64,000 bases of DNA from Escherichia coli (lineage in GTDB: Bacteria; Pseudomonadota; Gammaproteobacteria; Enterobacterales; Enterobacteriaceae), in the NCBI RefSeq assembly GCF_048403405.1, contig NZ_CP183129.1; one strand, written 5' to 3'. Shown here one piece after another: positions 19,046 to 23,524 of this stretch. The translations under genes and the position numbers were made by a program. The notes under the pieces are model-generated. The model worked only from the letters and a program-made list of their open reading frames with translations. It was not told the origin of the DNA and searched no databases. How positions within the stretch are numbered: the first letter of the stretch is position 1; each line of letters opens with the position of its first letter.

Positions 19046-19431
19046 GACGTATCGCCTGATTTGCTACCCGTCATGACTGTGATTCCGCCAACATCAACGG
19101 TAACACGCGGCATTCGGGATATTTCGTATGTCAAAGGTAACCGTTACCACTTTTCGCGCCTGGTTTTTTTAGTTTCACGACGAAAAAATGGTCTAAAACG
19201 TGATCAATTTAACACCTTGCTGATTGACCGTAAAGAAAGATGCGCTACATACAAGTGTAGCACCGTTTATTCTCTGTAAATTCCTTATTACGACGGCGTG
19301 AAACGCCTGTCAGGATCCACTGCCAGACCTCATTTTACGGTTTGCGCAGGCGTCTACGTTTCACCACAACACTGACATCGCTCTGGCAAGGATGTTAGGA
19401 TGGACCACGGATGATAATGACGGTAACAAGC

Positions 19432-20373
19432 ATGTTAGACAATGTTTTAAGAATTGCCACACGCCAAAGCCCACTTGCACTCTGGCAGGCACACTATGTC
19501 AAAGACAAGTTGATGGCGAGCCATCCGGGCCTGGTCGTTGAACTGGTACCGATGGTGACGCGCGGCGATGTGATTCTTGATACGCCGCTGGCGAAAGTAG
19601 GCGGAAAAGGCTTATTTGTAAAAGAGCTGGAAGTCGCGCTCCTCGAAAATCGCGCCGATATCGCCGTACATTCAATGAAAGATGTGCCGGTTGAATTCCC
19701 GCAAGGTCTGGGGCTGGTCACTATTTGTGAGCGTGAAGATCCTCGCGATGCCTTTGTGTCCAATAACTATGACAGTCTGGATGCGTTACCGGCAGGCAGT
19801 ATCGTCGGGACGTCCAGTTTACGTCGCCAGTGCCAACTGGCTGAACGCCGCCCGGATCTGATTATCCGCTCCCTGCGCGGCAACGTCGGCACTCGCCTGA
19901 GCAAACTGGATAACGGCGAATACGATGCCATCATTCTTGCCGTAGCCGGACTAAAACGTTTAGGTCTGGAGTCACGCATTCGCGCCGCGTTGCCACCCGA
20001 GATTTCTCTTCCGGCGGTAGGACAAGGTGCGGTGGGCATTGAATGCCGCCTTGATGATACACGCACTCGCGAGCTGCTTGCCGCGCTGAATCACCACGAA
20101 ACTGCACTGCGCGTTACCGCAGAACGCGCCATGAATACCCGTCTCGAAGGCGGATGTCAGGTACCAATTGGTAGCTACGCCGAGCTTATTGATGGCGAAA
20201 TCTGGCTGCGTGCGCTGGTCGGCGCGCCGGACGGTTCGCAGATTATTCGCGGTGAACGCCGCGGTGCGCCGCAAGATGCCGAACAAATGGGGATTTCGCT
20301 GGCAGAAGAGCTACTGAATAACGGCGCGCGCGAGATCCTTGCTGAAGTCTATAACGGAGACGCCCCGGCATGA
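19432..20373 (+). CDS. hemC: Porphobilinogen deaminase HemC
   Basis: ORF 19411..20373; start set at [19 protein letters not shown] (313 aa). Confidence 0.93.
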
Positions 20374-21110
20374 GTATCTTGGTCACCCGCCCGTCTCCCG
20401 CTGGAGAAGAGTTAGTGAGCCGTCTGCGCACACTGGGGCAGGTGGCCTGGCATTTTCCGCTGATTGAGTTTTCTCCGGGTCGACAATTACCGCAACTTGC
20501 TGATCAACTTGCAGCGCTGGGGGAGAGGGATCTGTTGTTTGCCCTCTCGCAACACGCGGTTGCTTTTGCCCAATCACAGCTGCATCAGCAAGATCGTAAA
20601 TGGCCCCGACTACCTGATTATTTCGCCATTGGACGCACCACCGCACTGGCGCTACATACCGTAAGCGGACAGAAGATTCTCTACCCGCAGGATCGGGAAA
20701 TCAGCGAAGTCTTGCTACAATTACCTGAATTACAAAATATTGCGGGCAAACGTGCGCTGATATTACGTGGCAATGGCGGTCGTGAGCTAATTGGGGATAC
20801 CCTGACGGCGCGCGGTGCTGAGGTCACTTTTTGTGAATGTTATCAACGATGCGCAATCCATTACGATGGTGCAGAAGAAGCGATGCGCTGGCAATCCCGC
20901 GAGGTGACGACGGTCGTTGTTACCAGCGGTGAAATGTTGCAGCAACTCTGGTCGCTGATCCCACAATGGTATCGTGAGCACTGGTTACTACACTGTCGAC
21001 TATTGGTCGTCAGTGAGCGTTTGGCGAAACTCGCCCGGGAACTGGGCTGGCAAGACATTAAGGTCGCCGATAACGCTGACAACGATGCGCTTTTACGGGC
21101 ATTACAATAA
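20370..21110 (+). CDS. hemD: Uroporphyrinogen-III synthase HemD
   Basis: 246-aa ORF overlapping hemC stop by 4 nt. Confidence 0.93.
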
Positions 21111-21131: not shown

Positions 21132-22325
21132 ATGACGGAACAAGAAAAAACCTCCGCCGTGGTTGAAGAGACCAGGGAGGCCGTGGACACCACGTCACAA
21201 CCTGTCGCAACAGAAAAAAAGAGTAAGAACAATACCGCATTGATTCTCAGCGCGGTGGCTATTGCTATTGCTCTGGCGGCGGGCGTCGGTTTGTATGGCT
21301 GGGGTAAACAACAGGCCGTCAATCAGACTGCCACCAGCGATGCCCTGGCTAATCAACTGACGGCACTGCAAAAAGCCCAGGAGAGCCAAAAAGCTGAGCT
21401 GGAAGGCATTATCAAGCAACAAGCTGTACAGCTTGAGCAGGCGAATCGTCAGCAAGAAACGCTGGCAAAACAGTTGGATGAAGTCCAACAAAAGGTCGCC
21501 ACCATTTCCGGCAGCGATGCTAAAACCTGGCTGCTGGCTCAGGCCGATTTTCTGGTGAAACTCGCAGGACGGAAGCTGTGGAGCGATCAAGACGTCACGA
21601 CCGCTGCAGCGTTGCTGAAAAGTGCAGATGCCAGCCTGGCGGATATGAATGACCCGAGTCTGATTACCGTTCGTCGGGCAATTACCGATGATATCGCCAG
21701 CCTTTCTGCGGTATCGCAGGTGGATTATGACGGCATCATCCTTAAGCTTAATCAGCTTTCAAATCAGGTAGATAACCTGCGTCTGGCCGATAATGACAGC
21801 GATGGTTCGCCGATGGATTCCGACGGTGAAGAGCTTTCCAGTTCCATCAGCGAATGGCGTATCAATCTACAAAAAAGCTGGCAGAATTTTATGGACAACT
21901 TCATTACGATTCGCCGTCGTGATGACACCGCCGTACCGCTGTTAGCGCCAAATCAGGATATCTATCTGCGCGAAAATATTCGCTCTCGCCTGCTGGTCGC
22001 AGCACAAGCTGTACCGCGTCACCAGCAAGAGACTTATCGCCAGGCGCTGGAGAACGTCTCCACCTGGGTACGTGCTTACTACGATACTGATGATGCCACC
22101 ACCAAAGCGTTCCTCGACGAGGTGGACCAGTTAAGCCAGCAAAATATCTCGATGGATCTTCCGGAAACCCTGCAAAGCCAGGCGATGCTGGAAAAACTGA
22201 TGCAGACTCGCGTGCGTAACCTGCTGGCACAACCGGCAGCGGGGACAACGGAAGCTAAACCTGCACCTGCACCTGCACCTGCACCGCAAGCTGATACTCC
22301 GGCAGCCGCGCCGCAAGGAGAATAA
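21132..22325 (+). CDS. hemX: HemX (putative uroporphyrinogen-III C-methyltransferase-like membrane protein)
   Basis: 397-aa ORF; Q/A-rich coiled region; C-terminal (PA)n encoded by CCTGCA tandem repeats at about 22260-22290. Confidence 0.9.
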
Positions 22326-22327
22326 CC

Positions 22328-23524
22328 ATGCTAAAAGTGTTATTGCTCTTTGTTTTGCTGATTGCGGGGATAGTGGTTGGCCCGATGATTGCCGGTCATC
22401 AGGGTTACGTGCTGATCCAGACCGACAACTACAATATCGAAACCAGCGTCACTGGCCTGGCGATTATTTTGATTCTGGCGATGGTAGTGCTGTTTGCCAT
22501 TGAGTGGCTACTGCGGCGGATCTTCCGCACAGGCGCACACACCCGTGGGTGGTTTGTCGGACGTAAGCGTCGCCGTGCCCGTAAGCAGACCGAGCAGGCG
22601 CTGCTGAAACTAGCGGAAGGCGATTATCAGCAAGTTGAAAAGCTGATGGCGAAAAATGCCGATCACGCTGAACAACCGGTGGTGAACTATCTACTGGCTG
22701 CCGAAGCCGCGCAACAACGTGGTGATGAAGCACGCGCCAACCAACATCTGGAACGTGCAGCGGAGCTGGCCGGCAACGACACCATTCCGGTAGAAATCAC
22801 CCGTGTACGTCTTCAACTGGCCCGTAATGAAAACCATGCTGCACGCCACGGCGTGGATAAGCTGCTGGAAGTTACGCCACGCCATCCGGAAGTATTACGT
22901 CTGGCGGAACAGGCGTATATCCGCACAGGTGCATGGAGTTCGCTGCTGGATATCATCCCATCAATGGCGAAAGCCCACGTTGGCGATGAAGAACATCGTG
23001 CAATGCTGGAACAACAGGCATGGATTGGCCTGATGGATCAGGCGCGCGCCGATGACGGTAGCGAAGGTTTGCGAAACTGGTGGAAAAACCAAAGCCGGAA
23101 AACGCGTCATCAGGTGGCGTTACAGGTGGCAATGGCGGAACATCTTATTGAATGTGACGATCATGATACTGCTCAGCAAATTATCATCGACGGCCTGAAA
23201 CGCCAGTATGATGATCGTCTGCTGCTGCCGATCCCGCGTCTGAAAACCAATAACCCGGAACAGCTGGAAAAAGTGCTACGCCAGCAAATCAAAAACGTCG
23301 GTGATCGCCCGCTGTTGTGGAGCACATTGGGTCAGTCACTGATGAAGCACGGTGAATGGCAGGAAGCATCGCTCGCCTTCCGCGCGGCGCTGAAACAACG
23401 TCCGGACGCCTACGATTACGCATGGCTCGCCGACGCGCTGGACAGACTGCACAAACCAGAAGAAGCTGCAGCGATGCGCCGCGACGGTTTGATGTTAACG
23501 TTGCAGAACAACCCGCCACAGTAG
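22328..23524 (+). CDS. hemY: HemY (TPR-containing inner membrane protein)
   Basis: 398-aa ORF with N-terminal TMs; immediately follows hemX. Confidence 0.9.
   Translation: MLKVLLLFVLLIAGIVVGPMIAGHQGYVLIQTDNYNIETSVTGLAIILILAMVVLFAIEWLLRRIFRTGAHTRGWFVGRKRRRARKQTEQALLKLAEGDYQQVEKLMAKNADHAEQPVVNYLLAAEAAQQRGDEARANQHLERAAELAGNDTIPVEITRVRLQLARNENHAARHGVDKLLEVTPRHPEVLRLAEQAYIRTGAWSSLLDIIPSMAKAHVGDEEHRAMLEQQAWIGLMDQARADDGSEGLRNWWKNQSRKTRHQVALQVAMAEHLIECDDHDTAQQIIIDGLKRQYDDRLLLPIPRLKTNNPEQLEKVLRQQIKNVGDRPLLWSTLGQSLMKHGEWQEASLAFRAALKQRPDAYDYAWLADALDRLHKPEEAAAMRRDGLMLTLQNNPPQ

Follow-up and report, generated by a model that had tools for sequence, protein, structure and literature searches.

A CCTGCA hexanucleotide repeat encoding (Pro-Ala)n at the 3' end of Escherichia coli hemX is the typing locus CVN014/EHC-1 and varies in length among strains

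The hemX gene in a 64,000-nucleotide stretch of Escherichia coli DNA (here called the window) carries, close to its 3' end, a run of CCTGCA units that encodes alternating proline and alanine. The initial annotation of this DNA proposed that the run expands and contracts in frame by slipped-strand mispairing and gives a linker of strain-variable length. The question is whether the number of units does vary among strains, by what process it changes, and whether the length has any consequence for HemX or for the downstream gene hemY.

The window carries a 4-unit allele, which occupies the last 5% of hemX. The repeat string given for it earlier, CCTGCACCTGCACCTGCACCTGCACCG, and the translation PAPAPAPAP were both exact. 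Residues 377 to 384 of the 397-residue HemX read PAPAPAPA and are followed by P385, which is encoded by CCG. On its 5' side the array is flanked by ACGGAAGCTAAA, and on its 3' side by CCG CAA GCT GAT ACT CCG GCA GCC GCG CCG CAA GGA GAA TAA CC ATG. Period-6 identity was perfect over positions 22259-22285 (Tandem Repeats Finder: period 6, 4.5 copies, 100% matches, score 54), and these 27 nt formed the longest perfect period-6 tract of the window. When 300 composition-matched sequences of 64 kb were simulated with a first-order Markov model, the longest period-6 tract had a mean length of 13.9 nt (sd 1.0) and a maximum of 18 nt, and a length of 27 nt was reached in 0 of the 300. Chance does not account for the CCTGCA tract of hemX. 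The second-longest perfect hexamer repeat of the window, (TCGCTT)x3 at positions 54236-54253, measures 18 nt, which equals the simulation maximum, and probably arose by chance.

We then analyzed the gene and the protein in which the tract lies. The gene order in the window is hemD, hemX, hemY (Table 1). A Pfam scan of the hemX open reading frame identified the HemX family over residues 130-363 (PF04375, E = 3.9e-108, 361 bits against a cut-off of 25.9), and the repeat, at residues 377-385, lies outside this domain. A hydrophobic helix is found at about residues 35-57, and the tract sits in a C-terminal tail of residues 366-397. An AlphaFold2 model built on a 12-sequence alignment was of low quality (mean pLDDT 43.6, pTM 0.32); in this low-confidence model, helices were placed at residues 35-57, in a long stretch at residues 69-123 and at further positions up to residue 365, with no structure after residue 365. 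The C-terminal tail is apparently disordered, which a model of this quality is too poor to prove. A periplasmic location of the tail is probable, judging from the one hydrophobic helix near the N terminus and from the analogy with Mic60. HemX has been called "poorly characterized" (PMC2704936), and in a preprint it is regarded as a distant homologue of Mic60 that has no mitofilin domain (bioRxiv 10.1101/2022.06.14.496148). Of the linker proposed in the initial annotation, the variable length stands, but the tract is part of a C-terminal tail and joins no two domains. An inter-domain Pro-Ala linker was therefore rejected, as the tract is followed by 12 residues and the protein has no Pfam domain past residue 363.

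The gene was annotated as hemX in every RefSeq genome that matched, and in all genomes seen its RefSeq product name was uroporphyrinogen-III C-methyltransferase. The Pfam scan found no methyltransferase domain in HemX, its matches being PF04375 and a sub-threshold match to Tweety, and the product name is apparently a misnomer of historical origin. Elsewhere in the window, the program-called hemC open reading frame at positions 19411-20373 comprises 320 aa; the accepted start of hemC is probably an internal Met, and the 320-aa reading frame is likely over-extended.

The boundary between hemX and hemY was conserved in 24 Enterobacteriaceae loci, where hemX ends in PQGE and a stop codon, with the DNA reading CA(A/G)GGAGA(A/G)TAA and ATG following within 2-3 nt. 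This conserved arrangement of PQGE, AGGAG and ATG suggests that hemX and hemY are translationally coupled, and the conservation of the PQGE end may reflect the ribosome-binding site of hemY and not a function of the protein end.

Table 1. Positions in the window of the hemX repeat, the surrounding genes and the matching primer sites
Feature	Position	Strand	Remarks
hemD	20370-21110		
hemX ORF, 397 aa	21132..22325	+	Pfam PF04375; stop codon 22323-22325
EHC-1 forward primer site GTGCGTAACCTGCTGGCACA	22212..22231	+	single exact match; primer from PMC10062581 S5 Table
CVN014 reverse primer site GCAGCRGGGACAACGGAAGC	22236..22255	+	single exact match; primer from PMC8143711 Table 1
Array of 4 perfect CCTGCA units	22260-22283	+	window sequence; encodes P377-A384 of HemX
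EHC-1 reverse primer site CGCGGCTGCCGGAGTATC	22293..22310	-	single exact match; primer from PMC10062581 S5 Table
AGGAG, likely hemY ribosome-binding site	22316..22320	+	within the last hemX codons CAA GGA GAA TAA; putative role
hemY ORF, 398 aa	22328..23524	+	PF07219 HemY_N and TPR repeats; begins 2 nt past the hemX stop
CVN014 forward primer site TCCCCGCAATCAGCAAMACAAAGA	22347..22370	-	inside hemY; single exact match; primer from PMC8143711

The tract was compared with that of K-12. The hemX gene of K-12 DH10B is annotated at 1182 nt, that is, 393 aa and a stop codon, which is the K-12 length that the initial annotation had given. BLASTP of the window HemX against the K-12 HemX gave 388/397 identities with one gap only, of 4 aa, which falls inside the Pro-Ala tract. 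Between identical immediate flanks, the DNA reads (CCTGCA)2 in K-12 and (CCTGCA)4 in the window. The difference between 397 and 393 aa, which had been tentatively attributed to repeat number, corresponds to exactly two units.

To extend the comparison, we searched 5,426 complete E. coli genomes with a 291-bp query spanning the tract (window positions 22130-22420), and 5,425 of them matched. The 3' end of hemX was without a match in one of the 5,426 genomes; one genome matched in two places, and one match was on a plasmid. Among 60 systematically sampled records, the matched lengths were 252, 272, 279, 285, 291, 297, 303, 309, 315, 321, 327, 333, 339, 351, 357 and 362 bp, which, two special cases apart, are 6-bp steps. 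Over two samples, 118 of the 120 listed matches differed from the query length by multiples of 6 bp, and the remaining two were a deletion of the tract in strain NCTC11023 and an error-ridden record, P276M. When 18 of these loci were read, the tracts made up a series of uninterrupted (CCTGCA)n, with n = 1, 2, 3, 5-12, 14, 15, 16 and 25, to which the 4 units of the window are added. When the search was run with a synthetic query of 25 units, the matched lengths pointed to alleles of 12-20 and 25 units, the values 13 and 17-20 being deduced from length only. The reading frame and the PQGE end with its stop codon were intact in 17/17 E. coli alleles and 6/6 alleles of Escherichia species that were read. 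The strain-variable, in-frame length proposed for the tract was thus borne out over the 5,425 genomes; the count is not invariant, and the length differences among E. coli alleles map to the tract, which is the opposite of the outcome named beforehand as speaking against the proposal, namely a constant repeat count with length differences elsewhere.

The two special cases were read individually. NCTC11023 (NZ_LS483297.1, positions 400-460 of locus L003) has a natural hemX allele without the array and the following five codons CCGCAAGCTGATACT, and the tract is dispensable in at least this one strain. In P276M (NZ_CP044293.1, positions 1660-1790 of locus L054), 7 units are followed by CCTGCT GCACCTGCA CCA and then by 4 units; the sequence is noisy there, and the annotation gives the neighbouring hemY a frameshift and an internal stop. 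The interrupted array of P276M is probably an assembly error, and it was not counted as a variant.

Allele frequencies were taken from two systematic samples out of the 5,425 genomes (combined n = 119). Since RefSeq complete genomes are enriched for laboratory K-12 derivatives and clinical clones, the shares describe the database and not the species: 2 units, 17%; 3 units, 5%; 4 units, 7.6%; 5 units, 14%; 6 units, 15%; 7 units, 10%; 8 units, 9%; 9 units, 6%; 10, 11 and 12 units, about 4% each; and 14, 15 and 16 units, about 1% each. The allelic diversity at the tract in these 119 genomes was about 0.90.

We also compared the number of units with the sequence on both sides of it. Four genomes with identical 867-bp flanks had 7, 8, 9 and 14 units, and two genomes with identical O157-type flanks had 5 and 10. 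Flanks that were one SNP apart over 867 bp carried 1 and 16 units in one pair of genomes and 3 and 15 units in another. Counts of 5, 7, 8, 10 and 12 units were found among the genomes labelled O157:H7 in the two samples, and a count of 2 in an O55:H7 strain. Because different counts occur on identical flanks, the count changes locally and far faster than point mutation.

For the distribution beyond E. coli, one genome per species was scanned for the conserved end of hemX, AAAPQGE and a stop, which gave the 24 Enterobacteriaceae loci. Pure CCTGCA arrays were present in E. albertii (6 units), E. whittamii (6 units), Escherichia sp. E1V33 (7 units), SCPM-O-B-8794 (7 units), Escherichia sp. MOD1-EC7003 (2 units) and strain E69 (1 unit). 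In the same scan, the array was absent in Salmonella, Kluyvera, Yokenella, Trabulsiella, Pluralibacter and Enterobacter, and the hemX tails of Citrobacter had short Pro/Ala-rich stretches in mixed codons and no CCTGCA array. Across the loci scanned, the array is restricted to Escherichia. The initial annotation had suggested counting repeat units in an alignment that included Salmonella; Salmonella hemX is without a repeat at the position of the tract. In the 12-sequence alignment across genera, HemX was nearly invariant up to P368 and in its last residues, and residues 369-389 were the sole poorly conserved stretch.

Other length variants of HemX were seen in the course of the comparison. Three HemX sequences of Citrobacter sedlakii (P0033, P0010 and P0025; 394, 397 and 400 aa) have 1, 2 or 3 Ala-Ala-Pro copies, respectively, at the orthologous position, which looks like an independent 9-bp VNTR. 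A HemX of Salmonella Berta (P0063, 413 aa) has a 24-aa tandem duplication across the end of the membrane helix, and a HemX from an ENA metagenome (P0001, 485 aa) contains an internal duplication of 88 aa together with a tract that a single Thr interrupts, PAPAPAPTPAPAPAP. Each of these two duplications is either real or an assembly artefact.

Primers of published multiple-locus VNTR analysis (MLVA) schemes were matched to the window. Both CVN014 primers had sites there, with 0 matches expected by chance, and they face each other across the repeat. The predicted CVN014 amplicon, 22236-22370, measures 135 bp, and with the published formula, repeats = (PS-111)/6 (PMC8143711), we obtained (135-111)/6 = 4, the number of units that was read. 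The EHC-1 primers also face each other across the repeat, as a tighter pair than those of CVN014. The primers of the other nine GECM loci and of EHC-2 and EHC-5 had no match in the window. The hemX tract, CVN014 and EHC-1 are one locus, and this locus has already been published. CVN014 is a generic E. coli MLVA locus (GECM-7/GECM-10) of Lindstedt et al. 2007, as cited in PMC3407997, PMC3877011, PMC5217547 and PMC8143711, and EHC-1 is a locus of the Japanese MLVA scheme for enterohemorrhagic E. coli O157/O26/O111 of Izumiya et al. 2010, as cited in PMC10062581. In the MLVA literature, CVN014 is called the most variable locus of its assay, and within ST131, where isolates differing at CVN014 only were found, it was the commonest single-locus difference (PMC3407997). 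Searches of the literature gave no paper that ties hemX to a VNTR, and the link came from primer matching alone. The open-access papers on CVN014, as distinct from the original 2007 description, mention neither a location in hemX nor (Pro-Ala)n.

Taken together, the results favor the reading that the tract is a coding VNTR, CVN014/EHC-1, with a slippage-driven, near-neutral length polymorphism in an unstructured C-terminal tail, to which we give a probability of about 90%. At replication, the nascent and template strands would misalign by whole 6-bp units; the unit has a self-complementary TGCA core, so a looped-out strand could fold back, which may aid the misalignment. Pro-Ala dipeptides would then be gained or lost with the reading frame kept. 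Since the tail past the HemX domain is poorly conserved and apparently unstructured, most length changes would be tolerated, and alleles of 0 to at least 25 units could coexist as a near-neutral, fast-evolving polymorphism.

Replication slippage is the accepted mechanism for short tandem-repeat loci. It is also the most likely mechanism here, as it fits the exact 6-bp steps, the pure arrays, the differing counts on identical flanks and the uniform CCT/GCA codons. Slipped-strand mispairing, as put forward in the initial annotation, therefore stands as the standard explanation for such an array, although the event itself was not observed. The codon usage points the same way: proline is encoded by CCT in every unit, while elsewhere in hemX the proline codons are CCG (9 times), CCT (once) and CCA (once), which indicates that the array grew by copying of DNA units and not through selection of a Pro-Ala peptide with free choice of codons. 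For single strands of 10 units, folding energies of -11.3 and -13.7 kcal/mol were predicted (z-scores against shuffled sequences, -4.4 and -3.0), and folding of the single strands of 4 units was not significant against shuffles (z = -2.1 and -1.3). Hairpins could, speculatively, stabilise slipped intermediates in longer alleles. A hairpin-forming unit was rejected as the main cause of the hypervariability, given the modest energies and the lack of significance at 4 units, and was kept as a possible contributor.

The tract-less allele, the sister genera without a tract and the within-clone differences in count are read most simply as a tolerated, near-neutral length polymorphism. A point against neutrality is that at least five Escherichia lineages besides E. 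coli have retained a pure array, which fits either selection for a long Pro-Ala tail or ongoing slippage.

It is conceivable that the number of units changes by homologous recombination instead of slippage, through unequal sister-chromosome exchange or import of a foreign hemX. Between strains, up to 18 SNPs in 867 bp separate the flank haplotypes at hemX-hemY, so allelic exchange does take place at the locus over long time scales. However, a count that differs on identical flanks indicates a change local to the array, and 6-bp units in arrays of 12-150 bp offer little length for RecA-dependent exchange, which counts against recombination; we regard it as unlikely. The variation could also have been produced by sequencing or assembly errors in repeat DNA, as the interrupted array of P276M next to its frameshifted hemY might suggest. 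This explanation is effectively refuted, since the matches are off by whole 6-bp multiples in all but two cases, arrays of up to 150 bp are readily spanned by reads, and independent laboratories see the same polymorphism by PCR fragment sizing.

The length of the tail could also be functional and under selection, a stiff Pro-Ala spacer in a single-pass inner-membrane protein setting the reach of the conserved C-terminal peptide, probably in the periplasm, so that lineages have become tuned or diversified. The retention of a pure array in E. albertii, E. whittamii and three more Escherichia lineages, the conservation of the terminal PAAAPQGE across genera and the reported distant homology of HemX to Mic60 are in line with such a function. 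Yet one natural allele has no tract, alleles of 1 to 25 units coexist, and sister genera do without the tract; counts that differ on identical flanks and within single clones behave as a mutational clock and not as a tuned trait, and the overlap of the terminal codons with the hemY ribosome-binding site can explain their conservation. We consider a selected tail length quite improbable. The related proposal that Pro-Ala length is non-neutral, with a hypervariable spacer adjusting either how far the C-terminal end of HemX, as a Mic60-like inner-membrane protein, extends across the periplasm or the expression of hemY, is in our estimate very improbable; if true, the tract would be a length-tuning locus giving heritable, rapidly adjustable variation, and not an on/off contingency locus. 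An action at the RNA level, in which array length alters the mRNA structure upstream of the hemY ribosome-binding site and tunes hemY translation, would draw on the short distances involved, the array ending 33 nt upstream of the hemY AGGAG and hemY starting 2 nt past the hemX stop, and on the predicted self-folding of the array RNA, whose minimum free energy drops by about 2.6 kcal/mol per unit. In partition-function folding with 0 to 25 units, however, the predicted pairing of the Shine-Dalgarno sequence and of the AUG was unchanged, the pairing probability between the Shine-Dalgarno sequence and the tract was zero at every length, and ribosomes finishing hemX would be expected to unwind the region. 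With no effect of tract length in the predicted folding, accessibility of the hemY ribosome-binding site was rejected as the main explanation, and an RNA-level action is highly improbable.

As a discovery, the tract matters little, since it has been a fingerprinting marker of E. coli since 2007-2010, also for ST131 and O157 outbreak strains. What is made explicit here is that CVN014 and EHC-1 are a single locus at hemX codons 377 onward, encoding (Pro-Ala)n. We add the spectrum of alleles in 5,425 complete genomes, which runs from 0 to 25 units with all arrays pure, and the observation that the array is genus-wide in Escherichia and absent from Salmonella and Citrobacter. For annotation, repeat number explains the strain differences in HemX length without functional implication.

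Among known repeat systems, the simple-sequence contingency loci of Haemophilus, Neisseria and Campylobacter switch genes on and off by frameshift or by promoter spacing. They share with the hemX tract a presumed slippage in a short tandem repeat. The hemX tract was rejected as a phase-variable contingency locus, as its 6-bp unit lies in an open reading frame and all alleles read keep hemX intact. Pro-rich spacers of envelope proteins and enzymes include the OmpA hinge APAPAPAP, the (EP)n/(KP)n region of TonB and the Ala-Pro linkers of pyruvate dehydrogenase E2. Like the hemX tract, they alternate Pro-X and are expected to be extended and unstructured. They join two folded domains and have an essentially fixed length in each species, whereas the hemX tract comprises 0 to 50 residues and is followed by 12. 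STTR5 in yohM of Salmonella Typhimurium is another in-frame 6-bp coding VNTR used for typing. VNTRs like STTR5 have in common with the hemX tract a hexamer in an open reading frame, a frame that is kept, a fast and mostly stepwise change and use as an epidemiological clock, although gene, unit sequence and genus all differ between the two and Salmonella hemX is without the repeat. The STTR loci in general are covered in PMC5183578. The comparison with the two typing loci themselves is one of identity. CVN014 is the same locus with the same 6-bp unit and an amplicon that fits its size formula, and the 2-12 repeats published for Swedish ESBL isolates (PMC5217547 Table 3) agree with the genome counts. 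EHC-1 is likewise the same locus with its primers aside, and its published values of 4-13 within O157, which differ between O157 clades (PMC10062581), match the counts found in the O157:H7 genomes.
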